From an uncultured Candidatus Saccharibacteria bacterium (GTDB lineage: Bacteria; Patescibacteriota; Minisyncoccia; Phycocordibacterales; Phycocordibacteraceae), in assembly GCA_964434255.1 (NCBI GenBank), contig CAYSUL010000002.1:6463-64887 (forward strand): a stretch of 58,425 nucleotides of DNA, given 5' to 3'. Positions 6,335 through 40,527 of the stretch are shown in pieces. Numbering within the stretch: the stretch's first letter is position 1; the number at the start of each line of letters is the position of its first letter. The notes beneath the pieces were generated by a model. That model was not told where the DNA came from. It saw only the letters and a list, made by a program, of their open reading frames with translations, and did no database searches. The translations under genes were made by a program, and so were the position numbers.

Positions 6335-7102
6335 CTATTCCTCTATACCTCCACCGATTGTAGGAACCTTCTGCACAATCTCCGTATTGAGGGCGACGAG
6401 ATCCGGCCGACGGGCAAGAAAAGCGACTATCTCCTCGGCAGAAAAGTCGGGGTTGCCGGGGTAGAGAGCGTCATAGACGGCAGATAGAAGCGTATAATCC
6501 TCGGCTGTATCGAGAGTAAGTCGGAGAGTCGGCCACAGCATAGCGCCTTCCGCTCGCCAGTTACCGAGCTTGAACCGTTCTGGGTGCGAACGAATGGAAT
6601 ATCCAGCATGCTCGCGATACGCAGGATCGGTATCGTTCGTATCAGCCTCTATCAGCTTCGCAAAGTCATATGCTCGTACATCGAAGCCAATAGGAAATGT
6701 TTCCTCGAATTCGTTGCTGGTGCAATCGTAGCCCCCGGAATCGAGAAGCTCGATGGCTGTATCCACCAAACGCCAATCGACGACCGGGCTGTCCGCCATG
6801 CCCTGCACAAGGATATCCGCGTTGTGTTCCTTCCCCGCTCCCACGACACGACCAAGCACATCGTCCTCGCTCCCTCGGAAATACGCACATCCCATCTCTT
6901 CGCACAATTGAACGACTGGGTCGTCGGCAGCGTTCGTCGTCGTCGCGACCACGACTTCGTCGGTGTACACGCTGCGACGATGACGTTCGATCATATGCGC
7001 CATGACCGGCTTCCCCGCGAGCGGCATCAGTATCTTGCCCGGAAGCCGCGTTGAGGTCATGCGTCCTTCGATCGTAGCGATTACTTTCTTGCCGTTGATC
7101 AT
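6335..7102 (-). CDS. Acylneuraminate/SpsF-type cytidylyltransferase (CMP-ulosonic acid synthetase family)
   Basis: 255 aa. The N-terminus VIATIEGRMTSTRLPGKILMPLAGKPVMAHMIER is typical of the CTP_transf_3 family (SpsF/PseF/NeuA-like). Confidence 0.75.
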   Translation of the reverse strand: MINGKKVIATIEGRMTSTRLPGKILMPLAGKPVMAHMIERHRRSVYTDEVVVATTTNAADDPVVQLCEEMGCAYFRGSEDDVLGRVVGAGKEHNADILVQGMADSPVVDWRLVDTAIELLDSGGYDCTSNEFEETFPIGFDVRAYDFAKLIEADTNDTDPAYREHAGYSIRSHPERFKLGNWRAEGAMLWPTLRLTLDTAEDYTLLSAVYDALYPGNPDFSAEEIVAFLARRPDLVALNTEIVQKVPTIGGGIEE

Positions 7103-9910: not shown

Positions 9911-10984
9911 TTAGCCGAGATCCTCCCAGCGGATAGGCTGACCCTGCTTGAGTGCTTTCGCAAGCTGCTTCCCGATGATGACACCCCTATATTTCGGATA
10001 GATGCCAAGTGCAGGGCGGAGCACGTCGATATCCTGCTCCGTAAGTACCGCGCCCACCTCGAGATCGCGCGTAACGACGAGACCGCGTCGTTGCACTATA
10101 ACGGTCTCCGATTCCTCTTCGACCACCTCCTTACGACCAGTGCCCATCGCCGCCTCGAGATTGCGCGTACGCTCGATCATCTTGCCGAACTCTTCGAAGG
10201 TCATCGAATGAGGGTGGTCCGGCCCCGCATTACCACGATCGAAGGTGATGTGCTTCTCGATAACACGAGCACCGAGCGCAACCGCACCGAGCGGCACCAC
10301 ATCATCGGGCGTGTGGTCGGAGTATCCGAGAATAGCGCCGAACGCGTTTCGATAGGTATTGAGCACATTCAGGTTCGCGCTCTCGAATTTCGAAGGATAG
10401 TTCGTTATGCACTGCATGAGCACCAGATCCTTGTTCCCGGTCTTCTCTATGATGCTGACCGCCTCATCGACTTCAGCCAAGGTGGCGGCACCCGTCGCGA
10501 GCATGATGGGTTTCCCTTTGCGGGCGATGTATTCGATCATTTCAAGCCACGTGATATCACCCGAACCGATCTTGAAGAATTCAATACCGAGGCTATCGAC
10601 GAGATCGACAGCAGCGTAATCATACGCGGCGGTCGATGGAGTGATGCCTATCTCGCGGCAATAGTCGAAGAACTCTTTGTGCCATTCGTGCGGGAATTCC
10701 ACTTCAGCGAACACTTCATCCACTGGACGATTCCAACTTCCGTGCACACCCTTCAGTTTCATAGATGCAAACGCCTCTCTCGAGACTATCTTGTTTGCCT
10801 TGAAGGTCTGTATCTTGGCGCAGTCCGCGCCGATCTCTTTCGCCTTTCGTGCGTATTCCTTAGCCGTCTCGAGACTACCGTCGAAATTTGCACCAATCTC
10901 GGCGATGAAATAGGTTGGCTGCCCTTCGCCTATTACGCGTTTCCCGATCGTGCATTGTTTTGAAAATTCGATCATATCATTCAT
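9911..10984 (-). CDS. NeuB-family nonulosonic acid synthase (PseI/LegI/NeuB type) with a C-terminal SAF domain
   Basis: It has YFIAEIGANFDGSLETAKEYARKAKEIGADCAKIQTF, GYSDHT, and a SAF-like tail (VVTRDLEVGAVLTEQDIDVLRP). Start set at MNDMIEF (10984), an 8-nt overlap with the upstream stop. Confidence 0.9.
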   Translation of the reverse strand: MNDMIEFSKQCTIGKRVIGEGQPTYFIAEIGANFDGSLETAKEYARKAKEIGADCAKIQTFKANKIVSREAFASMKLKGVHGSWNRPVDEVFAEVEFPHEWHKEFFDYCREIGITPSTAAYDYAAVDLVDSLGIEFFKIGSGDITWLEMIEYIARKGKPIMLATGAATLAEVDEAVSIIEKTGNKDLVLMQCITNYPSKFESANLNVLNTYRNAFGAILGYSDHTPDDVVPLGAVALGARVIEKHITFDRGNAGPDHPHSMTFEEFGKMIERTRNLEAAMGTGRKEVVEEESETVIVQRRGLVVTRDLEVGAVLTEQDIDVLRPALGIYPKYRGVIIGKQLAKALKQGQPIRWEDLG

Positions 10985-11696
10985 GGTACCTCGTAACGTC
11001 ATCTGCTTCGAGTGGGTGGTACCCGCCGCCCTGCTCACGTTCTTCTATCGCATGCGCACCCATGCCCGCGACCCGTCCGAGAACGAAGAGTGCCTCTGCC
11101 GCGTCCGACGGCATGGAGAGCGCGAGCACCGCTGCCGCACACGCCCCATCGATATTGAGCGGTAGCTTCTTGCCTGCAACGGCCGCGAGCGCGGCTTCGA
11201 TAGCGTATGCCTTCTCGAAGGAGGCCATCGGTACCGCAGCTGCGAGCGCCTTCTCATGGATGGCGCGCGCACGCGGATCCTCATCCTTATATATACGATG
11301 ACCGAAACCAGGAACACGTCTTTTGCGTTCAATGAATTCCTTCACCAGGGCCTCCGGTTCTTCCGGGCGCGCGAGGAGCTCCGCGGCGGCACGTCCCGCC
11401 CCCCCATGCGCATCACCTATCGCAAGGACACCGGCGGCCATGCCGACATGCACGGGATTACCTGCCGATACCGACACGCGCGGCACGTACAAGGAGGGAA
11501 CCTCTATGCCGTGCTCGCTCGATGCCACGAGCACCGCATCGAGGAGCGAACGTTCGCCATCCGTGGGAAGCCGCTTAGCGTAGAGCAGGAATACCGCCTC
11601 GGTGAATGTATGGGCTGCAAGGAGCGAAGACATCGATTGATTGTAGATGTAGTGTTCCCCTCCTTGAGAGTCGCTTATGGCAGTTGTGAATTTCAT
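10977..11696 (-). CDS. Short citrate-synthase-fold protein (citryl-CoA lyase-like)
   Basis: 239 aa with the citrate synthase signature VPGFGHRIYKDEDPRA and the downstream LNIDG region. It is far shorter than GltA and similar in size to Ccl-type proteins. Confidence 0.7.
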   Translation of the reverse strand: MKFTTAISDSQGGEHYIYNQSMSSLLAAHTFTEAVFLLYAKRLPTDGERSLLDAVLVASSEHGIEVPSLYVPRVSVSAGNPVHVGMAAGVLAIGDAHGGAGRAAAELLARPEEPEALVKEFIERKRRVPGFGHRIYKDEDPRARAIHEKALAAAVPMASFEKAYAIEAALAAVAGKKLPLNIDGACAAAVLALSMPSDAAEALFVLGRVAGMGAHAIEEREQGGGYHPLEADDVTRYHE

Positions 11697-11703
11697 ATTG
11701 TAA

Positions 11704-12603
11704 TTACAGCACGGTTTTAAGAAGAACCGGAATGTCCTCAGGCGTACGTGCGATGAGCGCGCCAGCCGCTTGAAGCATGGATATCTTTGCGGAGGCTGCG
11801 CCGCGCCCGCCTTCGATGATGGCGCCGGCGTGCCCGAGCGGCGTCTCGCCCGGGAGAGTTTCGGCGAACACGCCAGCGATGAGGGCGACTACCGGCTTCG
11901 TGAGCGTGCCTGAAGCCAGTGCTCCGGCAAGCCGTTCTTCGTATACGCCGCCCACCTCACCGAATATAACCAGCGCCCGGGTCTCGAGGTCGCGCTCGAA
12001 TAATAGGGCGATATCGAGGAAATCAGAACCGATGAGTGGATCGCCGCCGATACCGACCGCAGTAGTCTGACCGATCCCCTGCTCGCTTAGGATGCGCGAT
12101 ATCTCGGCAGTCATGCCGCCGCTCTTGGAGATAACCCCCACCGGCCCAGGCGTGAAGACACGGTGCGCGGTACCGCCCGAGCCGATACTACCGATCTTCG
12201 CTTTTCCAGGCGATATGATGCCTACGGACGACGGGCCGACAATGCGCACACCGGCTTCGCGAGCGCGCGCGATGATATAGGCGACATCGTAGAGCGGTAC
12301 CTGTTCGCTGAGAATATTGATAAGCCCGATGCCACTATCGATCGCTTCCTCGACAGCGCTCCGGACGAACGACCCCGGAACAACAATGAGCGTCGCCTCT
12401 ATGCGAGGGTGCGCCGCATGCGCCTCTCGCACCGATTCGTATACCGGCTGCCCACTCGCGATCATCCGTCCGCCCTTGCCGGGTGCGACCCCCGCAACGA
12501 CCTTGGTGCCGTACTCGAGCATTGCCGCCGCCGCACGCGACCCTTCCTTGCCGGTGATGCCCTGCACCAGCACTTCAGTGTCAGTATCAATGAGTATCGA
12601 CAT
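11704..12603 (-). CDS. Succinyl-CoA synthetase alpha-like subunit (CoA-binding, phosphohistidine loop)
   Basis: 299 aa. It has VLVQGITGKEGS..YGTKVVAGVAPGKGG and the active-site loop PLGHAGAII. Confidence 0.85.
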   Translation of the reverse strand: MSILIDTDTEVLVQGITGKEGSRAAAAMLEYGTKVVAGVAPGKGGRMIASGQPVYESVREAHAAHPRIEATLIVVPGSFVRSAVEEAIDSGIGLINILSEQVPLYDVAYIIARAREAGVRIVGPSSVGIISPGKAKIGSIGSGGTAHRVFTPGPVGVISKSGGMTAEISRILSEQGIGQTTAVGIGGDPLIGSDFLDIALLFERDLETRALVIFGEVGGVYEERLAGALASGTLTKPVVALIAGVFAETLPGETPLGHAGAIIEGGRGAASAKISMLQAAGALIARTPEDIPVLLKTVL

Positions 12604-13663
12604 GGTGATTCATTCGTTCGAGCAATGTTTCTGCGGACGCGGCCATCGAGCACTCGGGGCCGAACACGGTGATGGCGTATCCTTCCGTGCGTGCCGCTTC
12701 TTCCAGCAATTCCCGCGCTTCCGCCTGACGAGGTCCATCGCGCCTCACGACAATGGGATAACTAGGCTTGGGGGTAACGCGGCGCAACCCATCGAGGAAT
12801 CCCTTCATAGTCTCGTAAGTGTCGGTGAAATTCGCCGTGCCACCAACGACCCAGACGCCGCGGATCCCTGGCACCGAAAGCACGCGCACCGTTAGTTCTT
12901 CAACTACTGAAGCTGGTGGATTCCCGGAGTATTCAACGTAGTTAGCGGGCTTCCCGCCCGCGCTCATCAGGAGGTCGATAGTGAGCATGGATGCACCACC
13001 ACCCGAAGCGATGACGGCAATATCACCACCAAGCCTAAGAAACGGACGTTCGCCGTCTTTCGTGACAGCGGAATCGGTGACTATCTTCGCATCGCCCGCG
13101 ACCACACTCCCATCATCAAGCACGAATAACGGATTGACTTCGAGCAACGCGAGTTTCTGCGCTACGAACACGTCCCAAAGAGTGGTGAGTGCGTTCGTAA
13201 GGGCTTCGGTCGGTTCGATACCGGCAGCGAGGAGCGCTCGTTGTGCGAGCGCGGTATCGAGCCCGATAAGGATGGGCACCGGCGTGATTGTGGCCGATGC
13301 AACACCAGTGCCACCCTCAGCCGCAAGCGCGAGCACCGGCCCGCGCGCGTCGCCATCGTATGAAAAGCTTACGTAGCATTCACGTCTATAGTCTATAAGT
13401 TCTTCGGCGAGGAGATACTCCGGCAGATACCCATCGAGCTCGGTAGCGAGTAGCTGGCGTGCGCCAGCCGTAAAGGCAGCACTGTCTTCCACCACAAGGA
13501 TGCCACCCTTGCGTTTCCTATCGCCGACAGGTACCTGGGATTTGAGAACGAGCGGAAACGAGAGGACGAGGTCTGTCTGATCCGATCGCACTATCGCATA
13601 TTCTGGCGTGCGTATCCCTGCGGCGCGGAGCAGTTCCTTTCCCTCATGCTCAAGCAACCTCAT
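12587..13663 (-). CDS. Succinyl-CoA synthetase beta-like ATP-grasp subunit
   Basis: 358 aa. It has MRLLEHEGKELL, LLEVNPL and IAVIASGGGASMLTIDLLMSAGGKPANYVEYSGNP, colinear with SucC. Confidence 0.8.
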   Translation of the reverse strand: MRLLEHEGKELLRAAGIRTPEYAIVRSDQTDLVLSFPLVLKSQVPVGDRKRKGGILVVEDSAAFTAGARQLLATELDGYLPEYLLAEELIDYRRECYVSFSYDGDARGPVLALAAEGGTGVASATITPVPILIGLDTALAQRALLAAGIEPTEALTNALTTLWDVFVAQKLALLEVNPLFVLDDGSVVAGDAKIVTDSAVTKDGERPFLRLGGDIAVIASGGGASMLTIDLLMSAGGKPANYVEYSGNPPASVVEELTVRVLSVPGIRGVWVVGGTANFTDTYETMKGFLDGLRRVTPKPSYPIVVRRDGPRQAEARELLEEAARTEGYAITVFGPECSMAASAETLLERMNHHVDTH

Positions 13664-13672
13664 AGAAACTCG

Positions 13673-14677
13673 TTATGCCGCCCCCCGTATGCCATCGACA
13701 ATGCGAAGAAGCTCTTCTTTCGACATCTCCCCTTCCGTGCCGTGGCTTTCGAACGAGTAATCAGGAGGAAGCGGCGTGCCTTTTTCGGAATACTTCTTGA
13801 GACGCTCCGTCGTGGCCTCACTCGCATGCTCAGGAAGCACGACGAAATAATTCTCGAAGAATACGGAGTGCCGCGCCTCTTCTTTAGTAAGCAGAATCTC
13901 GTGAAGCTTCTCGCCGGGTCGAATACCGATGATGGTGCGCTTCGCCCCGGGCACGACGATGTCGAAGAGGTCCGTCAGCTTCATGGTCGACGCCTTCGGG
14001 ATGAAGATCTCGCCTCCTTCCATATGCTGAAGCGCGAAGAGCACGATCGAGAAGGCTTGCTCGAGGTCGATCCAAAAACGCGTCATACGCTCGTCCGTAA
14101 TGGTCACCGTATGCGTGTCCTTGGTCTTGATGAGCTTCTCGATAATGGAGCCGCGACTACCGACGACATTGCCGTACCGGACCGCGCTGAAGTGCGTCTT
14201 TCCATCAGAGTACGCGTTGCCCGCGATGAAAAGCTTCTCCGCACATAGCTTCGTCGATCCGTAAAGATTCACAGGCATTGCTGCCTTATCGGTCGAGACC
14301 AGCACCACCTTTTCGACTCCTTGATCGAGCGCTGCCTCGATAACATTCTGACTACCGATGATGTTGGTCTTCACTGCCTCGAACGGATTGAACTCAAGTG
14401 CCGGAACCTGCTTGAGTGCGGCGGCATGTATGACGATATCAACGCCATCAAAGGCTCGCTGGAGTCGAGGGAGATCGCGGACATCACCCAAGAAGAAGCG
14501 GAGGCGATCGTCGGCGATCTCCGCCTGGATTTCAGATTGCTTGAGCTCATCGCGAGAGAAGATGATGAGCTTCTTGAGCGTGGAATTGGCCAGGATATGC
14601 TTGGCGAAGTTCTTGCCGAACGAGCCGGTCCCGCCGGTGATGAGCACGGTCTTGCCTGTGAGCGAGTCGAATTGCAT
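13673..14677 (-). CDS. UDP-GlcNAc 4,6-dehydratase (PseB/FlaA1/CapD type)
   Basis: 334 aa. It has VLITGGTGSFGKNF, IFSRDELKQ, VIHAAALKQVP and NLYGSTKLCAEKLF. Confidence 0.85.
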   Translation of the reverse strand: MQFDSLTGKTVLITGGTGSFGKNFAKHILANSTLKKLIIFSRDELKQSEIQAEIADDRLRFFLGDVRDLPRLQRAFDGVDIVIHAAALKQVPALEFNPFEAVKTNIIGSQNVIEAALDQGVEKVVLVSTDKAAMPVNLYGSTKLCAEKLFIAGNAYSDGKTHFSAVRYGNVVGSRGSIIEKLIKTKDTHTVTITDERMTRFWIDLEQAFSIVLFALQHMEGGEIFIPKASTMKLTDLFDIVVPGAKRTIIGIRPGEKLHEILLTKEEARHSVFFENYFVVLPEHASEATTERLKKYSEKGTPLPPDYSFESHGTEGEMSKEELLRIVDGIRGAA

Positions 14678-15595: not shown

Positions 15596-16906
15596 CTAGC
15601 GGAGTTCGTCACGCCGTGCGTACACCTTGTGGAATGCGGTGATGACATCATCGAGATCCTGCTTCGTCATGCCTGGACGCATCAGATCGTGCGACACGAA
15701 CTCTTTCTCATACCAACGCTCGACAACGGGACACATCCCCTTCTCGTAACGGGCGACGCCCGCATAGAATTCAGAGCGGAATGGATACCCCTTGGAGCCG
15801 AATGCTATTTGCTTCTGGAATACCGGCATGAGATAGATGGGCTTCACATAGCCGCCTGATATGAGCGTGCCCTCTTCTTCCTGGAGTTCGTTCGGCGGGA
15901 GTTCAGCCGCTACCGCCTCAACGAAACGAGCACGCGGCACCCCGACTATCTCTTCTTCGTAAAGGAACGATTGCATGTAGTGTACGGACTCGGTGCCTGG
16001 CCGGATATGCGTCGGGCGAAAACCTGGCATGTCTAGCGAGCGTTCGGCGATATACGCGCAATTCTTTTGACGCTCTCGCACAAGGCCATCGAGCTTCTTG
16101 AGCTGCTCGCGGCCTATGGCTGCCTGGAGCTCGGTGAGGCGGTAATTCTGGCCGACCATGTTCACTAGATTCGTCTCTCCCTTGTCCTCGACGACTGCTT
16201 CCGCATGATTACGGATGAGCTGCATGCGCTCCGCGAAGACTGGGTTGTTAGTGACTGCGATGGAGCCCTCGCCAGTATGTATGTGCTTGTGATAGTTGAG
16301 GGAGAAGATACCGATATCCGAAAGTGTTCCGGCCATCCGGCCGCCATACGTCGCACCCGGCGCCTGCGAGCTGTCAGCGATGACGACGAGGCCGTGCTTC
16401 TTTGCGATAGCGTTGATGGCTTCTACGTCATGGACGCCACCAAGCAGATCGACCACAATGATAGCCTTCGTTCGCGGTGTGACGGCAGCTTCAACCGATT
16501 TCGGATCCAGACAGTAGTATTCGGGCTCGATGTCAGCGAACACTGGGACTGCTCCGTAGAAAAGTGGCGCAGTCGCTGAGATGCACATGGAGTACGGACT
16601 CACGATGACCTCATCGCCCGGTTCGATGCCGATAGCACCAAGTGCGGTGATGAGGCCGGAGGTTGCTGAGTTCGTGGAGACCGCGAACTTCACGCCGAAC
16701 CGGTCCGCCCACTCCGCCTCGAAGGCCTTCACCTCGGGGCCACCGAAGAATGCGGAATCCCAGGCGCCAATGAACTTGGAGAGCGCACCGGAATCCATCA
16801 CACGCATCGCTGCTTCCTTCTCCTCCTTCCCTATCGGGTTATAGGCAGGGAAGAGCTTTTCCTTGCTGCGCACCGGTTCGCCTCCATTGATTGCGAGAGT
16901 AGTCAT
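15596..16906 (-). CDS. DegT-family sugar aminotransferase (PLP Lys retained)
   Basis: It has LAINGGEPV, STNSATSGLITAL and FSLNYHKHIHTGEGS. ATG at 16906 is preferred over the GTG at 16939. Confidence 0.85.
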   Translation of the reverse strand: MTTLAINGGEPVRSKEKLFPAYNPIGKEEKEAAMRVMDSGALSKFIGAWDSAFFGGPEVKAFEAEWADRFGVKFAVSTNSATSGLITALGAIGIEPGDEVIVSPYSMCISATAPLFYGAVPVFADIEPEYYCLDPKSVEAAVTPRTKAIIVVDLLGGVHDVEAINAIAKKHGLVVIADSSQAPGATYGGRMAGTLSDIGIFSLNYHKHIHTGEGSIAVTNNPVFAERMQLIRNHAEAVVEDKGETNLVNMVGQNYRLTELQAAIGREQLKKLDGLVRERQKNCAYIAERSLDMPGFRPTHIRPGTESVHYMQSFLYEEEIVGVPRARFVEAVAAELPPNELQEEEGTLISGGYVKPIYLMPVFQKQIAFGSKGYPFRSEFYAGVARYEKGMCPVVERWYEKEFVSHDLMRPGMTKQDLDDVITAFHKVYARRDELR

Positions 16907-16920
16907 ATCGGAATGAGAAG

Positions 16921-17874
16921 TTATAAGAAGGTCCGGCACGCCGCATCGGTTCGAAGCGCATCGGTGAGCGTCGAGCGCGGTTCTTCATTGCCGTCGAGCA
17001 CGCGAACCGAATGCTCCATCAATCGCTCCATGGAATGGACCAATCCCGTCGGTTCCGTACGAGCGGGCCCAAGGATACGGAAACCGGCATAGAGTGGGTC
17101 AGGGATGACCTCCTCCGTTGCAAGCATCATACCTTCGTCAAGGAACCGAAACCTCCGTTTCTCGGTCCGAATCTCAAGCTCGAAGATAGAATACGCGCGC
17201 TCATCCCCTCCCATAAGAGAGAACTGTGGACACCGTTCGAAGGAAGCGAAACCGCTGACGGTCGGCTCGCCCTCCCAGTCCGCGAGCCTAGAAAGCGGGA
17301 CGCTCGTTACGAGCTCTCCGAACAGTAGCCGGGCAAGATCCAGCATATGCGAGCCCGTATGCAGGATGCCTTTCGAGTAGAGCGCGCCCGCGGACAGCAC
17401 CGAGCCATGCTTCCCCTCTCGTAGCTCTTCCGCAAGACGCACGACGGTGTCATCGAAGCGCCGGCGGAAATTAACGATAACGGGGATACCGCTCGCGCGA
17501 ACCGCCTCCTCAACGCGTGCCGCATCAGCCAGATCGATAATCGCAGGCTTCTCGAGGATGACAAGCCTCGGTCGATGCGAGAGCGCTTGGATGAGGATAT
17601 CCGCATGTGTTGCATCGGGCGTGGCTATCACGAGGATATCAGGTGAGACTTCTGACAGAAGCTGTTCGGCCGCTGGCACAAATTCCGTTCCCCACTTACG
17701 GGCTTCTTCTACACCCTTCGTCGCATCGATGTCGGTAAGCGCGACGAGCGTGAGACGCGAATGTCGCGTAACAGCATGCGCATGCGTGAGCACCTGCCTG
17801 GAATCAGGTGTATCGAACCCAGAAGCGATGCGCCCCGCTCCGAGTATTCCGACAGTGTATGAAATGTCAGTCAT
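16921..17874 (-). CDS. Gfo/Idh/MocA-family NAD(P)-dependent sugar oxidoreductase
   Basis: It has VGILGAGRIASG and LVILEKP. Three in-frame ATGs (17898, 17886, 17874) are possible starts. 17874 places the Rossmann motif near the N-terminus. Confidence 0.8.
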   Translation of the reverse strand: MTDISYTVGILGAGRIASGFDTPDSRQVLTHAHAVTRHSRLTLVALTDIDATKGVEEARKWGTEFVPAAEQLLSEVSPDILVIATPDATHADILIQALSHRPRLVILEKPAIIDLADAARVEEAVRASGIPVIVNFRRRFDDTVVRLAEELREGKHGSVLSAGALYSKGILHTGSHMLDLARLLFGELVTSVPLSRLADWEGEPTVSGFASFERCPQFSLMGGDERAYSIFELEIRTEKRRFRFLDEGMMLATEEVIPDPLYAGFRILGPARTEPTGLVHSMERLMEHSVRVLDGNEEPRSTLTDALRTDAACRTFL

Positions 17875-19225
17875 GGGAAAGTGCATATCCTGCGGCATTC
17901 GGGATCATTCCAAGCGCTCGGAGAAACTCAATGAAATCGAACAGAAGATAATCATTGTATTTGCGTGCCGCTACCTGGAACCCGAACGGGAGACCGCTCG
18001 GAGCGGTGAATTGCGGCACGCTCACCACGGGCAAATGCGCGAGCGTCCACATGAGCGACGGATCGGGAAGCTCCGGTACATCACGGAGCGGGGCCTCTCC
18101 GGCGGTAGAAAGCGAGATGATGACATCGTATGCATCGAACATGTCGTCAACTGCATAGATGAGTTCATTTTGTTCCTCGACGGCTTTCGCATAGTCAGCA
18201 AGTAGAATACGTTTCCCGCTCTCGATAAGCTCGTTCATAACCGGTGATACGAACTCGGCCTGCTGATGCTCGTCCTTGAAGTAGTACGAAAGTGCCTTGT
18301 TATAGATAGTTTCGTGGATCTGGTGTGCGTGCATGCTTCCAGGCGGAAGCGTGGCATCAACAACATCCACCTCCGCGATGCCCGCGAGCTGCTCTATGAA
18401 TTGAGAGAGCGCCTGCTGCGCGTATTTCGGCGCCTGTTCCCAGGTATGAGTACGTGCGAACCCGACGCGCCAGGGGCGCCCCGTTCGCTTTGTCTGGCGC
18501 ACACTATCGCGAAGCGCTTCCGTACTTATCGGATAGTCGAGCCCATCCACTCGCATAGCATCGAAACCACGAGTGAGATCCTCGGCATGCGCAACGAAGA
18601 AGCCGAGTGTATCGAGACTATCCGTCGTCTTGAGCGTACCCGTACGCGGAATGGTGCCAAATGATGGCTTGCATCCATACACGCCACAGAAGCTCGCCGG
18701 GCGCACGATTGAACCTGCCGTCTGAGAGCCGGTTGCAATCGGTACCATACCGAGCGATACCGCGACCGCGGACCCACTCGATGACGTACCGGGAGTGCGG
18801 CTCGTGTCCCATGGATTCTGTGTCGAATTGAGCGCATGGACAGCGAACTCCGCGGTAACGGTCTTCCCTACGACGATCGCGCCCTGACGCTTGAGATTGA
18901 AGACGGCACGCGCATCGTTCCCGGGCGTGAAGTCCTTCCAAAGCGGGCTTCCCATCTGCGTGGGAAAATCGAGCGTGTTGTATATATCCTTCACGCCAAC
19001 CGGCATGTAGCGAAGCAGGTCTTCACGGGTGCGTTCGTTGTCGGCGCCTAGACTCAAGCGCTTCGCGTGCGCAGCATCTGCTACATGCTCCCAGGCTCGA
19101 AACGTATCCTGGGATGGCTGTATGGCATCGATTGATTCCGCAAGAATGCTTTCAGCAGTGCGCTTGCCGTCTTCCACGTCATCGATGAGTGACCCTATGG
19201 ACCGCGTTAGGAAAAGCGAGCTCAT
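17867..19225 (-). CDS. Amidase-signature (GatA-like) family amidase
   Basis: 452 aa. It has GVKDIYN (Lys), the AS stretch [38 protein letters not shown]-type, and an ATGA overlap with the upstream amidotransferase at 19222-19225. Confidence 0.85.
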   Translation of the reverse strand: [452 protein letters not shown]

Positions 19226-20433
19226 GACTTAAGGTACGGACGCCTCTGCGCAGTCACATTGAATTTCTCGATCAGCTGCTCCGCGAACGGGAGAAGCCGT
19301 TCTTCATGCGCGTGCGGATTAGGTATGACCGGCGTGTCCGTTCCCTGCAGGCGCGGATGCCGTAGCTTCTTCATGGTCTCGTAGAACTCCTCCTCGGTCG
19401 AGCCTGAGATAGCAAGGTAATAATCGAGTGCGTGCGGACGCATCGGATCGTGCTTTCTAATAAGCTCGAACCCTTCGTCGCGAGTAAGAAGTCCGTTGCG
19501 CACATCGACACTTGCCTGCTCGGTCGTCCTGCCATATCCACGCTTAAGGTAGCAGGTGAAATCGTGCATACCGGACATGATGTCCTCGACACTCTTGTAT
19601 CGCTTATAGGTTCCCTCCATCTGCGTCTCCTTCCAGCCATAGGTATCGCGTAGGAATTCCGTCTGGCGCTCATCGTCCCAGAAGAGATAATCGCCCAAGT
19701 GGAGGCCCCACACACCTACTGTGTCTATTTCCTCCTGCGACGGCACAGTGAACGGGAATAGGTCGCGTGCACTCACCTCAGTGTCAACCATCTCATCGGC
19801 ACGCAATCGCGCCGACTGCTGTATGAAATACTCGCGATCGAAGGCATGCACCGGATCGGCATAGGTCGCGCGACCGGAGTTTTCCGCGAGCGATTCGCCC
19901 CATATCAGGAGCGGTATCTTGAACCGCACCGCCACCTGGAGCGGGAACGAACCGACGCCCGCGTGATCATGCCAGCTCACATCCCCGATGCCTTCGACCG
20001 ACTTCTTCACTAATCGATTGATGAGTCCACGATTCGGCGTGAACGCGATGTGGTCCACATTGAATATCTCTAGGCTGTTCTGCAGGTTGTACCACCCGCT
20101 CTCGCTCCACCAATTATGACTGAATGTCACGGCGAGCGGTTTCATCCCATATACCTTTGTGAGGACATGGAGCTGATAGGTACTGTCCTTTCCGCCACTG
20201 ATGGGAATGATGCAATCATAATTATCACCTGCCGCGGCTTTCGCTTCTTCGAGTATCGTGCGGAACGCCTTCTCGCGTTCCACCCAATTGATATGAATCT
20301 TCTGTTCTGAGGACTGACATGCTTGGCAGACGCCCATCTCATCGAACCCGACGCCATGTTGCGTCTCGGGTATACAGCAGCGTGTGCAGTATTGCAGATG
20401 CGGGAAAAGCGGGCCGGGACGTACGTGCGGCAT
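19222..20433 (-). CDS. N-acetyl-sugar amidotransferase (PP-loop; WbpG/WbuX/PseA type)
   Basis: 403 aa. It has an N-terminal Cys cluster CTRCCIPETQ..GVCQAC and a PP-loop IIPISGGKDSTYQ. Confidence 0.8.
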   Translation of the reverse strand: MPHVRPGPLFPHLQYCTRCCIPETQHGVGFDEMGVCQACQSSEQKIHINWVEREKAFRTILEEAKAAAGDNYDCIIPISGGKDSTYQLHVLTKVYGMKPLAVTFSHNWWSESGWYNLQNSLEIFNVDHIAFTPNRGLINRLVKKSVEGIGDVSWHDHAGVGSFPLQVAVRFKIPLLIWGESLAENSGRATYADPVHAFDREYFIQQSARLRADEMVDTEVSARDLFPFTVPSQEEIDTVGVWGLHLGDYLFWDDERQTEFLRDTYGWKETQMEGTYKRYKSVEDIMSGMHDFTCYLKRGYGRTTEQASVDVRNGLLTRDEGFELIRKHDPMRPHALDYYLAISGSTEEEFYETMKKLRHPRLQGTDTPVIPNPHAHEERLLPFAEQLIEKFNVTAQRRPYLKS

Positions 20434-20438
20434 AGGCG

Positions 20439-20987
20439 CTAGGGCGCGGAGAATTCGGCAGCGAGCAGGCCGTACTCGACAATGTCGACGTACTCCCCCG
20501 CCTTGAAGAAGGCCTCACGGCGCACGCCCTCCTCCGTGAAGCCAAGAGTGACCGCAAGCTTTTTCATCGCCTCGTTCTTGCTCGATGTGCCGCAGTATAT
20601 CCGGTGCAGATTCAAGGCGCCGAACCCATGCGCCAGTATGAGTACCGACGCCTCCTTGGCGATGCCCTGCCCCCAATAGCTTTTATCGCCGATCATAATC
20701 GCGTACTCCGCATTCCGACTCACATAGTCGATCTGCTGGAGCGAGATGTTCCCAATGTGCTTGCCGGTGTCTTTGGCAACGATTGCAAGGACAAGATTCC
20801 TTTTCAAGTCCGCTACCTCGGCAAGGTAGGCACGTGCGGCCTCTATGGTGTAGGGGAATACATGATGTCCGTTATGGGCCCCAACCTCCGAGTCGTTCAG
20901 CCAGCTGATATAGTCGCCCGCGAGGTCCTCCTCTGCCAAAGGACGTAGGGCTATGCGGGTTCCGTCTATAAAAATGGAGGAAATCAT
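20439..20987 (-). CDS. GNAT-family N-acetyltransferase (RimJ/RimL/PseH-like)
   Basis: 182 aa. It has WGQGIAKEA and a YCGTSSKNEAMKKLAVTLGF acetyl-CoA-binding-type region. Confidence 0.85.
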   Translation of the reverse strand: MISSIFIDGTRIALRPLAEEDLAGDYISWLNDSEVGAHNGHHVFPYTIEAARAYLAEVADLKRNLVLAIVAKDTGKHIGNISLQQIDYVSRNAEYAIMIGDKSYWGQGIAKEASVLILAHGFGALNLHRIYCGTSSKNEAMKKLAVTLGFTEEGVRREAFFKAGEYVDIVEYGLLAAEFSAP

Positions 20988-34243: not shown

Positions 34244-36115
34244 CTACCCCACCCACCTATCCCGCCAAATTTGGAACACCATGAGGTTCCAGAGCTCTTT
34301 TCGATTGTCCCGCGCGCCGCTCATGTGGTCGTCGATGAGTTTTGAGACGTACTCAGGATTCAGATACCCCTGGCTACGGAGTTTGTCTTCGGCGAGCGTC
34401 TCGAGACAGAAATCTCTCAGCGGTCCGCGAAGCCAGCGAGCAAGCGGGATACCGAAGCCCTTCTTCTTGCGATGCGCAATCCCCTGCGGGAGTTTATCCT
34501 CCATGAGTTTCTTCAGCAGGTACTTCGTCGTGCCGTTCCGGTACTTGTAATGATACGGGAGCGAAAAAACGAATTCCGCCAACGCATGGTCAAGAAACGG
34601 CGCACGCGTCTCAAGACCGTAGTGCATGCTCGCTCGGTCCATCTTTACCAACACCTGGTCCATCAGATAGCTGCGTGCGTAGGCAAACAACAGTCGGTTG
34701 CCTGTGTCCGGTTGACCAAACAATGCGGTCGCGCGATCAATATCTTCGAACACGTCTGTCTCCCGCACTGCCTCCACGAGTCGCGGACCCGCAAGCAAGA
34801 ACCGCTCCGCTTTATTGAAGGTGCCCAGCCACTCCATATGGCGATGCACGGGATTCGGTTCATCGCTTGAGACCAGTTTCCGAAGAGCATACGAGGTCGA
34901 GATATTACCCACCGAAGCAGGGAGTGCGTCGACGCCGGCCCTGATACCTTTCCGTACCCAGGACGGTAGTGCACGATACGGAGACGAAATAGTGTCGGCC
35001 GAGAATGTCGGATACCCGGCAAAAAGTTCATCGCCGCCGTCGCCACCAAGAGCAACCGTAACGGACTCCCTCGCAAAACGAGATAGGAGGAGTGTCGGGA
35101 TAACGGAAGCGTCGGCAATCGGTTCAGAGAGCACGTCGGGAAGTTCCGTGACGAGCGCGAGCGCATCCTCCGCGCGCACGATGCGTTCGTGATGCACCGA
35201 TCCGATGTGTGCCGCCACGTCGCGTGCATACGCCGACTCATCGAAATCCGGCTCGTCAAAGCCAATCGAAAAAGTATGTATGGGTGCAGCACTGTTTTTT
35301 TGCGCATAGTAGGCAATGGCAGAACTATCAAGTCCCCCGCTCAGGAACACGCCGAGCGGTACATCGCCCACAAGCTCACGCGATACGGTAGCCGCCAAAA
35401 GCTCGTCGAGTCGATCGAGAGCCGCAGACTCCGAGAGTACTGACACCCGGCGAGGTGGCTCCCAGAACGCATGCGTCTCGACCGGCTTACCCTTCGTGAA
35501 GAGGGCGACCGTCCCCGGCTCGAGCTTATGTACGCCGTCCAGAAGCGCGCGCGGCGTGGGCACGTAATCCAATTGCAGATAGCATGTAAGCGCCGAAAGA
35601 GACAGATTCCGCGTTGCGAGCCCGGGCACCAAGAGCGCATTAAGTTCCGACGCGAACGTTACTACGTCGCCTTCATGCGACCAGTATAACGGCTTCTCTC
35701 CCATGCGATCTCGTGCAAGCATGAGTCGCTTTGCGGAAAAATCGTAGAGCGCGATGGCGAACATCCCGCTCAAGCGCCGCACGCATTGCTCGCCTTCCTT
35801 GGCATAGAGTGCGAGCAGTACTTCCGTATCCGAATTGGTCTTGAATACCTGTCCCTTGTCCTCTAGCTCCTGGCGAAGTTCGGCGAAGTTGTATATCTCA
35901 CCGTTGAAGACCACTGCGACCGTCCCGTCCGCGCTCACCATCGGCTGGTTCGCTTCGGCGCTCGTATCTATGACGGAAAGACGTGCGTGCGCAAGCGATA
36001 CGCCACCCGCTACCAACAGACCAGTATAATCCGGCCCGCGATGCGCAAGCGCGGCTATCATCCGACGAGCGAGAGGTTCATCTTCCTGCCCAATGATTCC
36101 CGCTATGCCACACAT
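34244..36115 (-). CDS. asnB: Asparagine synthase (glutamine-hydrolysing) family amidotransferase
   Basis: 623 aa. It has the N-terminal nucleophile MCGIAG and the PP-loop FLSGGLDSS. Confidence 0.9.
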   Translation of the reverse strand: MCGIAGIIGQEDEPLARRMIAALAHRGPDYTGLLVAGGVSLAHARLSVIDTSAEANQPMVSADGTVAVVFNGEIYNFAELRQELEDKGQVFKTNSDTEVLLALYAKEGEQCVRRLSGMFAIALYDFSAKRLMLARDRMGEKPLYWSHEGDVVTFASELNALLVPGLATRNLSLSALTCYLQLDYVPTPRALLDGVHKLEPGTVALFTKGKPVETHAFWEPPRRVSVLSESAALDRLDELLAATVSRELVGDVPLGVFLSGGLDSSAIAYYAQKNSAAPIHTFSIGFDEPDFDESAYARDVAAHIGSVHHERIVRAEDALALVTELPDVLSEPIADASVIPTLLLSRFARESVTVALGGDGGDELFAGYPTFSADTISSPYRALPSWVRKGIRAGVDALPASVGNISTSYALRKLVSSDEPNPVHRHMEWLGTFNKAERFLLAGPRLVEAVRETDVFEDIDRATALFGQPDTGNRLLFAYARSYLMDQVLVKMDRASMHYGLETRAPFLDHALAEFVFSLPYHYKYRNGTTKYLLKKLMEDKLPQGIAHRKKKGFGIPLARWLRGPLRDFCLETLAEDKLRSQGYLNPEYVSKLIDDHMSGARDNRKELWNLMVFQIWRDRWVG

Positions 36116-38622: not shown

Positions 38623-39240
38623 TCATTTCACAGCAAAGAGGTAGTAGCCGCTCGTTTGACTGCTTCTCTCCTTATGAAGAAGTCGGTCGAGCGTCCGACC
38701 AAGCGTGCGTACGGGCCATGACTTCCCTCCAGGGAAGAGATGGAAGAGCGTCTCGAACGCGCCTCGAACGGATACGAATTCGCTGTGCGAGAAATCCTTA
38801 AACAGGAGCGGGAGCGTGTCGTGCGTGAAGCGCCAGTAGTCTTTGTAGTAGCCGACCTCGGCGTGGTAGTAGTACAGAAACGGTACGTACACGAGACAGA
38901 ATCCCCCAGGCTTAAGCACGCGATACATCTCCTGGCACGCCAGAATGGGGTTCTCGACATGTTCGAGTACGGCAATGGCGATGACCGCATCCTGCGACGC
39001 ATCGCTAAACGGCAACGCATGAATATCACCGACGATGTCGGGATTAAACGTATCGACTGGATCGAGAATCTTATACTCCATCTTCTTCGCGAGCGGCAGT
39101 ATCCATGCGTTTTCGGGCCTGAACCGATTATTGCGCGTCGGGTCAATCCGAAGCCCTCCACCGATATCGATCACGGATTTCTTCTCCGTAAAGATACGGG
39201 TGACTGCTTGTTTGAAGAATGCATCATGGGAAGTGCTCAT
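38623..39240 (-). CDS. Class I SAM-dependent methyltransferase
   Basis: It has VIDIGGG, IAIAVLEHVENP and LKPGGFCLVYVP. Confidence 0.75.
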   Translation of the reverse strand: MSTSHDAFFKQAVTRIFTEKKSVIDIGGGLRIDPTRNNRFRPENAWILPLAKKMEYKILDPVDTFNPDIVGDIHALPFSDASQDAVIAIAVLEHVENPILACQEMYRVLKPGGFCLVYVPFLYYYHAEVGYYKDYWRFTHDTLPLLFKDFSHSEFVSVRGAFETLFHLFPGGKSWPVRTLGRTLDRLLHKERSSQTSGYYLFAVK

Positions 39241-39875
39241 ACGGTGGCGATGAAAACATATCCGAGCGGATTGCGATATGCGCTATCCGGCCGCATGCGG
39301 AGGAACAGCTCGTTCCAGGATGCGTACCACAGATAGGCGATAGGGCGCAGAGCACGCGGAAGCGAAAGTGCGAGAGTATTGAAGTTAGCGAGGAGTGGTC
39401 CCTCGGCGAGCGGCGAGATCGAGGCGGTCTCGAAGCCTGCGTCAGCCAGCAGGCGCGCGAGTGCTTCATGCGTGTACCGGAAATAATCATGCGGATCAGG
39501 GTGGTAGCCGACCCAGAACGGCACGAAGCCTATGAGACGTCCGCCCGGAGCAAGGACACGCCGCACTTCCCCTAGGAGAAACGAGTGATTATAGACATGT
39601 TCGAGGACGTTACAAAGGAGGACCGTGTCCGCGCTCGCTCGTTCGCCCGGCAACGCGTCCTTCTCGAAATCGATCCCGGTCATCGAACCGTCTACGATGT
39701 TGATGGATGCATCGGTTGCCTTCTGGAGGTACGAAAAATAGTCAGGTGCATGCCCTCCCCCAACGTCGAGCACACGGCCCACGAGCGTATGCGCACGGAG
39801 CGCCTGGTTCATCCGAATACGAGCCAGACTCTGACCCCTAAAGAGCGCGCGCATCGTCTCAAGTGTTCGGACCAT
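39237..39875 (-). CDS. Class I SAM-dependent methyltransferase
   Basis: It has VLDVGGGH, LLCNVLEHVYN and LAPGGRLIGFVP. Start moved to MVRTLET (39875), next to the upstream stop. Confidence 0.75.
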   Translation of the reverse strand: MVRTLETMRALFRGQSLARIRMNQALRAHTLVGRVLDVGGGHAPDYFSYLQKATDASINIVDGSMTGIDFEKDALPGERASADTVLLCNVLEHVYNHSFLLGEVRRVLAPGGRLIGFVPFWVGYHPDPHDYFRYTHEALARLLADAGFETASISPLAEGPLLANFNTLALSLPRALRPIAYLWYASWNELFLRMRPDSAYRNPLGYVFIATV

Positions 39876-39876
39876 A

Positions 39877-40527
39877 TCAGGCGGGCGTTGCGATGACCAC
39901 GAGGGTCTCGAGGTACTTTGGCGTAAAGCGAGCAAGGAGTGCATAGACGCCATTCAAAAATTTCTTCTTCCAGCTCTCTGGATACGCGTATTCGAGCGAA
40001 TATACATACGCGATCTCCTGCAGTTCAAAGCCGCACTTCCCGAGAAGCGTACGAAGCGTCTTCCGATTGAAATAGCTGGTATGATCCGCGTTAACCGTCG
40101 GCTCGTCCTTAGTGAGCTTTTCGGCGAGATTGAAAAGATTGAAGCAGTTCGGTGTGGTCAGTACGAGACGACTCGTCGGGCCCATATGATTAACGCACGC
40201 AGCGAGGAATGCGCCTGGATTCGGGAGGTGCTCGATGATATCGCCTGCAAATACGACATCGAACCGCTGGTCCGGGAAGGAGAATTGTTCCGCACTCTCC
40301 TCGTGATAGCGACGCGTATCCGGGAATCCTGCGCGATCTATCTCAAGATCGACACCGAACACCTCTTTGGCCTGCTTCTGTAGGAGCGCGTGGGGCCAGT
40401 GATCGCTATTGTTCCGTATCCCTTGTCCGAGAAATCCGACATCGAGCACTGTATCGGTACTTTTCACGACTGCACCTATCAGTTCGGCTTTGTTGCGAAA
40501 TACACGGGGGTGGCTCATATACCTCAT
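39877..40527 (-). CDS. Class I SAM-dependent methyltransferase
   Basis: It has VLDVGF.GQG, FAGDIIEHLPNP and SRLVLTTPN. Start at the ATGA overlap (40524-40527). Confidence 0.75.
   Translation of the reverse strand: MRYMSHPRVFRNKAELIGAVVKSTDTVLDVGFLGQGIRNNSDHWPHALLQKQAKEVFGVDLEIDRAGFPDTRRYHEESAEQFSFPDQRFDVVFAGDIIEHLPNPGAFLAACVNHMGPTSRLVLTTPNCFNLFNLAEKLTKDEPTVNADHTSYFNRKTLRTLLGKCGFELQEIAYVYSLEYAYPESWKKKFLNGVYALLARFTPKYLETLVVIATPA

Follow-up and report, generated by a model that had tools for sequence, protein, structure and literature searches.

What supplies the nitrogen to an N-acetyl-sugar amidotransferase in a genome that encodes neither a HisH-like nor a HisF-like protein? The question is raised by a 58,425-nucleotide stretch of DNA (the whole of it is called the window here; GenBank assembly GCA_964434255.1, contig CAYSUL010000002.1, positions 6,463 to 64,887) from an uncultured Candidatus Saccharibacteria bacterium, in which a gene for a PP-loop N-acetyl-sugar amidotransferase (NASAT) of the WbuX family is directly followed by a gene for an amidase-signature enzyme. 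Acetamidino groups add positive charge to flagellar, S-layer and O-antigen sugars and shape recognition by phages and the immune system, and to our knowledge the nitrogen source of NASAT enzymes has never been defined biochemically. In E. coli O145 (WbuXYZ), P. aeruginosa O5 (WbpG with HisH2/HisF2) and Campylobacter (PseA with Cj1314c/Cj1315c), the synthetase is accompanied by a class-I glutaminase and a HisF-like barrel, and MMP1081-1083 of M. maripaludis reportedly form a system of the same type. The PseA/WbpG-type enzymes with which the initial annotation compared the synthetase of this locus are no exception, as their clusters also carry hisH/hisF paralogues. We propose that WbuX and the amidase of the window are probably the two halves of a heteromeric amidotransferase in which a single amidase-signature protein replaces HisH/HisF as the ammonia source. 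The pair probably marks a previously undescribed two-part amidotransferase for cell-surface sugars.

WbuX and the amidase form a conserved pair

The 403-residue WbuX, the only one that a profile search found in the host genome, scored 326 bits with the WbuX model TIGR03573, well above the curated NCBIfam cut-off of 203.2, and had no Pfam family match. Both the cysteine cluster (CTRCC..CQAC) and the PP-loop SGGKDS on which the initial annotation had based its assignment were found as described, the former as the Zn motif YCTRCC...CQAC with C16/C19 and C36/C39, the latter at residues 79-84. The PP-loop and all four cysteines were invariant across 53 orthologues. Legionella pneumophila NASAT (LpNASAT, PDB: 8WEX), the only solved member of the family, matched the window WbuX at 147 bits and shares with it the fold family, the PP-loop and the Zn-binding tetracysteine. 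The structure paper, published in 2023, defined the tetracysteine motif, described the function of the NASAT family as little known, and named only "ammonia", with no donor or partner protein, for an enzyme solved alone as a homodimer (PMC10607449). By family membership, WbuX of the window would form an acetamidino group from the N-acetyl group of a sugar. Its gene ends in an ATGA stop/start overlap with the amidase gene, which was also evident on reading the sequence again. The 452-residue product of the latter matched the Pfam Amidase family (PF01425) at 221.9 bits against a cut-off of 27, and carries the motif VGVKD with K79 and the Gly/Ser-rich signature GTSSSGSAV...GSQTAGS.

More than 100 homologues of the amidase were found at 55-73% identity. 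To follow the pair in other organisms, a scan limited to one genome per species collected 80 related loci with amidase orthologues (44-65% identity), which were searched with the window proteins and then analyzed at the level of open reading frames (ORFs); four with the amidase at a contig end were left out of the pairing count. WbuX of the window subtype (53-79% identity) adjoined the amidase in all 76 loci with readable flanks; in 75 of them its gene came immediately before that of the amidase on the same strand, and in the remaining one (L052) the order was reversed. Most pairs are translationally coupled, the genes overlapping by 1, 4 or 8 nt or lying fewer than 35 nt apart at most junctions. 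In five loci (L024, L057, L062, L069 and L073) the two genes formed one in-frame ORF of about 870 aa in which the PP-loop of WbuX and the catalytic Lys, Ser-rich signature and nucleophile motifs of the amidase are all intact; L073 comes from a cultured Thalassospira. Further fusions suspected in Sulfuricurvum/Methylobacter loci (L077, L080, L081, L084 and L085) turned out on frame analysis to be separate genes, closely spaced or overlapping. The only non-adjacent arrangement seen was in L130 (genome G443, contig C77, 65981-70493), where genes for a methyltransferase and a PIG-L-family de-N-acetylase lie between WbuX and the amidase, 2.2 kb apart.

The loci are spread over Bacteria and Archaea, the latter including Methanomicrobiales, and cover at least 17 named phyla. 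Of the 67 loci that could be assessed for it, 47 had a GNAT gene directly upstream of WbuX and 64 had one at any position; a GFO/IDH/MocA oxidoreductase gene occurred in 56 and a DegT/PseC-like aminotransferase gene in 65 of the 80. The remaining cluster genes vary in content and order among loci and the WbuX-amidase pair stays joined. Pairwise divergence of the two proteins was correlated (r = 0.79), as would be expected of neighbouring genes transferred together; such a correlation alone does not show that the proteins touch. The cassette has clearly been transferred horizontally as a block.

Amidase and HisH/HisF partners are complementary

Neither the window nor any other part of the 97.8%-complete genome contained a match to HisF/WbuZ (TIGR03572) or HisH (TIGR01855), so that the initial observation of a missing HisH/HisF-like gene in the window extends to the genome. 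Among 401 genomes sampled from its phylum, the Patescibacteria, eight encode a WbuX above the cut-off, and an amidase orthologue was found only in that of the window. In each of the other seven, the sole HisF-like gene of the genome lies about 1 kb or less from WbuX, and a HisH-like gene beside WbuX was confirmed in six. The same division was seen within single genomes. A Methanoregula genome encodes one WbuX with the amidase and a second with HisH/HisF-like genes, and the Thalassospira genome carries, besides its fused WbuX-amidase gene, two further WbuX genes beside a HisH/HisF-like pair. The HisH/HisF-paired WbuX proteins tested are 25-38% identical to WbuX of the window, and amidase-paired WbuX proteins formed a branch of their own with a Shimodaira-Hasegawa-like approximate likelihood-ratio test (SH-aLRT) value of 99 in a quick tree that held ten HisH/HisF-paired rows, some of them on long branches.

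A sample of 251 Pseudomonadota genomes gave 37 WbuX genes in 32 genomes, the centre genome excluded. A HisF-like gene was found within 3.5 kb of 27 of these genes, one of them a HisF-WbuX fusion, and an amidase partner for one, at a distance of 2.2 kb. Orthologue-level amidase matches in this sample (489 and 659 bits) were confined to WbuX genomes and lay near WbuX; the next matches, at 330 bits or less, came from WbuX-less genomes. From the two samples, amidase-type partnering is the minority, at roughly 3-12%. The distribution of amidase and HisH/HisF among WbuX genes is complementary, and the survey of co-occurrence and fusion that had been suggested for the locus yielded this pattern together with the five WbuX-amidase fusions.

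The HisF-WbuX fusion is an 805-aa ORF (L131:604-3021, + strand, genome G417) with a HisF-like domain (His_biosynth, residues 125-366) and a HisH-sized ORF just upstream. The canonical partner can therefore fuse to WbuX too, in parallel with the WbuX-amidase fusions. Two other arrangements were observed. In genome G575, a 764-aa ORF (L124:3420-5714, + strand) has WbuX as its C-terminal half, preceded by about 380 residues without a Pfam match, and its contig contains no HisF-like or amidase gene; this N-terminal domain could be a third kind of partner domain. In genome G407 (L126:4092-5924, + strand), a gene for an AsnB-like glutamine amidotransferase comes immediately before WbuX and overlaps it by 4 nt, and WbuX has no HisF-like or amidase neighbour.

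A confident interface is predicted between WbuX and the amidase

We then predicted the complex of the two window proteins from our own 53-row alignment for each chain. The interaction prediction score from aligned errors (ipSAE) was 0.93 in all three runs and 0.01 for the best control; the mark applied to it was attained by 58 of the 80 complexes of known structure and by 2 of the 110 mismatched pairs, a calibration that holds only roughly for alignments of our own making. Contacts agreed between runs to at least 94%, and the predicted local distance difference test (pLDDT) value of the partners was at least 91. We found no solved complex of like kind, 8WEX being NASAT alone, and the score accordingly does not stem from the memory of a known structure.

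On the WbuX side, the predicted face comprises the Zn-ribbon region 17-54, the acidic W252-D253-E255-E259 and the motif D310-R312-G314-R318-E320. The amidase would contribute N83, F99-R106, the F189-K199 loop after the signature and Y314/Y315. Interface residues were more conserved than the rest of the proteins (0.83 against 0.74, and 0.77 against 0.66), with invariant residues on both sides. Conserved acidic residues that are thought to be catalytic lie on the pocket side near the tetracysteine motif in LpNASAT (PMC10607449), and the amidase is predicted to cover the corresponding side of WbuX. The prediction supports binding and does not demonstrate it. The physical association expected of two amidotransferase modules was thus found in silico in two forms, the five natural in-frame fusions and the predicted complex, and we regard an association of WbuX with the amidase as highly likely.

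The amidase resembles malonamidase E2 rather than GatA

The closest solved structure to the amidase is malonamidase E2 of Bradyrhizobium (PDB: 1obi, 1ock and others), which matched residues 68-426 at 188 bits (E = 2e-54), compared with at most 115 bits for GatA chains. K62, S131, S155 and R158 of malonamidase E2 align with K79, S148, S172 and R175 of the amidase, and by this alignment the Ser-cisSer-Lys triad of the amidase-signature family is present as K79, cis-S148 and S172. K62, S131 and S155 form the catalytic triad of malonamidase E2. K79, S148, S172 and R175 of the amidase and the whole Gly/Ser-rich signature were invariant in the 53 orthologues, which come from many phyla. The two enzymes also have in common the unusual GS-x-x-R-P arrangement (GS-I-V-R-P in the window amidase) with an Arg three residues past the nucleophile, where GatA has GGSIRQP. 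The alignment loses strength in the C-terminal half. Malonamidase E2 is a free-standing catabolic amidase with no synthetase partner, and its substrate identity is not transferable to the window amidase.

The label "GatA-like" given by the initial annotation holds at the level of the superfamily and fails for GatA proper. The gatA equivalog model (TIGR00132) gave 180.1 bits against a cut-off of 481.1, AtzE gave 179 bits, and the true GatA of the host, at 523 bits, is encoded elsewhere in its genome. The segment GFGxEVKRRI, present in that GatA and in 2df4, has no counterpart in the amidase; it includes R358 (S. aureus numbering), the glutamine-binding residue of S. aureus GatA. GatA-type recognition of glutamine was therefore rejected for the amidase, as this segment is missing.

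As judged from its motifs, the amidase seems to be catalytically active and to hydrolyse a small amide. The invariant Arg and the malonamidase E2-like pocket point to a carboxylate-bearing amide, which is probably the kind of donor used. The closest characterized relatives (malonamidase E2, GatA, AtzE, allophanate hydrolase and biuret hydrolase) all free ammonia from a terminal carboxamide. The one established precedent that we know of for an amidase-signature protein as the ammonia-generating subunit of a heteromeric amidotransferase is GatA in GatCAB. The parallel proposed for the window amidase is one of role and not of orthology, and the acceptor subunit differs as well, being a PP-loop ATP pyrophosphatase instead of GatB.

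Full-length relatives of the amidase at 270-330 bits were also found in six Pseudomonadota genomes without WbuX (G461, G477, G481, G532, G537 and G605). They are probably free-standing enzymes of a sister family that gave rise to the partner amidase and that may be malonamidase-like.

Proposed mechanism and alternative explanations

In the reaction we propose, the N-acetyl group on a pseudaminic-acid-type sugar would be converted to an acetamidino group. The amidase would cleave a small primary amide through the triad K79/S148/S172 and free ammonia, with glutamine taken by default as the donor. The ammonia would cross the conserved interface to the WbuX/NASAT subunit, where the acetamido carbonyl would be activated with ATP at the PP-loop and the activated oxygen then displaced by the ammonia. 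The amidase would take the role of the HisH-like glutaminase plus the HisF-like barrel (WbuY/WbuZ), as a non-orthologous replacement of the nitrogen-supply module. We infer the release and transfer of ammonia, the donor and the sugar position that is modified. With the WbuX/WbuY/WbuZ systems the window pair shares a TIGR03573 synthetase with PP-loop and Zn tetracysteine, the surface-glycan/nonulosonate context, and a partner encoded beside WbuX and able to fuse to it, whose nitrogen-supply role in the case of the amidase is a proposal.

The heteromeric amidotransferase is the most economical reading of what is shown by the order and coupling of the genes, their fusions, the complementary distribution of the partners, the intactness of the catalytic motifs and the confidence of the predicted interface. 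The idea of the initial annotation that the amidase generates the ammonia is likewise supported in silico by the pairing, the fusions, the complementary distribution and the interface; three of the findings that it named as speaking against the idea were looked for, and we found no HisH/HisF partner elsewhere in the genome, the pairing in every readable locus of the relatives, and an interface that stood far above its controls. A broader statement seems likely to us as well, if slightly less so, namely that an amidase-signature enzyme serves as the dedicated ammonia subunit of a PP-loop sugar amidotransferase, the second class after GatCAB, with a donor that may not be glutamine, and that it has spread horizontally across at least 17 phyla of Bacteria and Archaea.

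Several points weigh on the other side. Nine of the 37 Pseudomonadota WbuX genes had neither a HisF-like gene nor an amidase within reach (three at contig ends, one directly after an AsnB-like amidotransferase gene and one fused to an unknown N-terminal domain). A dedicated partner is thus the rule and not obligatory, and free ammonia or a more distant donor can apparently suffice for NASAT enzymes. The use of glutamine by the amidase cannot be argued from GatA, given the missing segment, and the calibration of the complex prediction is rough. Our literature search found no paper on the WbuX-amidase pairing and no biochemical or genetic evidence for the pair. Finally, two enzymes that act one after the other in a pathway could also be adjacent, fused and predicted to share an interface.

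The last point leads to the main rival, in which the sugar itself would be the substrate of the amidase. As a tailoring hydrolase the amidase might, for example, remove an N-acyl or amide group from the nonulosonate, either ahead of the WbuX step or following it, and complex or fusion would serve the hand-over of substrate. This rival gains from the ability of the amidase-signature family to accept large amides, from the GNAT acyltransferase that is almost always in the module, and from the distance between amidase-paired and HisH/HisF-paired WbuX proteins, which makes a different substrate possible. Yet it leaves unexplained why the amidase occurs exactly where HisH/HisF are missing, and why each WbuX has a separate partner in genomes with both types. 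The preference of the nearest characterized relatives for small terminal carboxamides and the invariant malonamidase E2-like Arg also argue against a sugar-sized substrate, and we consider this explanation unlikely.

Far less probable is that WbuX and the amidase have simply been inherited side by side on a mobile glycan cassette, with WbuX using free ammonia and the amidase doing an unrelated job. The movement of the cassette as a block and the WbuX genes without a nearby partner agree with it. Against it stand the pairing in 76 of 76 assessable loci, the fusions with intact motifs, the correlated divergence, the confident and conserved interface, and the constancy of the pair where other gene order varies. 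That the amidase has no catalytic function and serves WbuX in a structural or regulatory role, a view for which the predicted complex taken alone would speak, is the least credible of all given the invariance of K79, S148, S172 and the entire signature.

If WbuX and the amidase do form an amidotransferase, they offer a natural alternative to the HisH/HisF helpers, available also as a single fused polypeptide that would be simpler for reconstituting the reaction, and a second example of the amidase-signature fold as an amidotransferase subunit. Hundreds of glycan-cluster genes labelled "amidase" or "GatA family" could then be annotated correctly. A reduced 710-kb genome with no histidine pathway would still be predicted to be able to make the acetamidino modification.

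The pair lies in a pseudaminic-acid-type operon

The host genome (710 kb in 42 contigs) has its closest homologues in Kaiserbacteria, Adlerbacteria and Minisyncoccia, which places it among the Patescibacteria. WbuX and the amidase are encoded on the minus strand within a tightly packed operon for a pseudaminic-acid-type nonulosonate (Table 1), the pathway being marked as such by the presence of PseB. In the order of transcription, GNAT, WbuX and the amidase are followed by the GFO-family oxidoreductase, the DegT aminotransferase, an unknown gene and PseB, and then by three ATP-citrate-lyase-like genes, NeuB, DUF218, a second unknown gene, a second DegT, the cytidylyltransferase and a Wzy_C/TPR protein. 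The GNAT enzyme would probably install the N-acetyl group that is amidinated afterwards.

Table 1 Features of the window discussed in the text (positions count from the first nucleotide of the window)
Feature	Position	Strand	Basis
CMP-nonulosonate cytidylyltransferase-like gene	6335..7102	-	PF02348, 79 bits
Operon gene, 201 aa	8720..9325	-	no Pfam or NCBIfam match
NeuB/PseI-like nonulosonic acid synthase	9911..11038	-	PF03102, 272 bits, and SAF domain
Three ATP-citrate-lyase-like genes	10977..13663	-	
PseB, inverting UDP-GlcNAc 4,6-dehydratase	13673..14677	-	TIGR03589, 413.9 bits (cut-off 407.75)
Operon gene, 298 aa	14696..15592	-	no Pfam or NCBIfam match
DegT/PseC-like pyridoxal-phosphate (PLP) aminotransferase	15596..16939	-	PF01041, 272 bits; PseC model 203 bits, under cut-off
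GFO/IDH/MocA-family oxidoreductase	16921..17898	-	PF01408, 59.5 bits; gene start overlaps amidase gene end
Amidase-signature enzyme, 452 aa, proposed ammonia-generating module	17867..19225	-	PF01425
ATGA stop/start overlap of WbuX and amidase genes, translational coupling	19222..19225	-	plus-strand TCAT read in sequence
WbuX/NASAT-family PP-loop N-acetyl-sugar amidotransferase, 403 aa, synthetase module	19222..20433	-	TIGR03573, 326 bits
GNAT N-acyltransferase, 182 aa, heads the trio	20439..20987	-	PF13302, 93 bits
AsnB-like glutamine-dependent amidotransferase	34244..36115	-	GATase_7 and Asn_synthase

No PseG-like gene was recognized in the cluster, and the 298-aa or the 201-aa operon protein may fill the PseG step; the former recurs in 15 of the 80 related loci. 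The three ATP-citrate-lyase-like genes encode a SucC-like ATP-grasp protein with a citrate-binding domain, a SucD-like CoA-binding/ligase protein and a citryl-CoA-lyase-like protein, and resemble a split ATP-citrate lyase or a citryl-CoA synthetase plus lyase. The trio was also found in the related loci L006 and L014, and it may provide a local supply of acetyl-CoA for N-acetylation.

Two ORFs suspected from their size to be HisH/HisF-like (38623-39240 and 39237-39953) proved to be a methyltransferase in one case and a protein without a family match in the other. Most of the window (3098-48245) is devoted to glycan synthesis, with many GT4/GT2 transferases, three DegT aminotransferases, sugar epimerases/dehydratases, a flippase and a 711-aa Wzy_C/TPR ligase-like protein, and the window makes up about 8% of the genome. 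The AsnB-like gene belongs to the same large glycan locus and gives the organism a further, self-contained amidotransferase, one that uses glutamine and would serve a different sugar modification.

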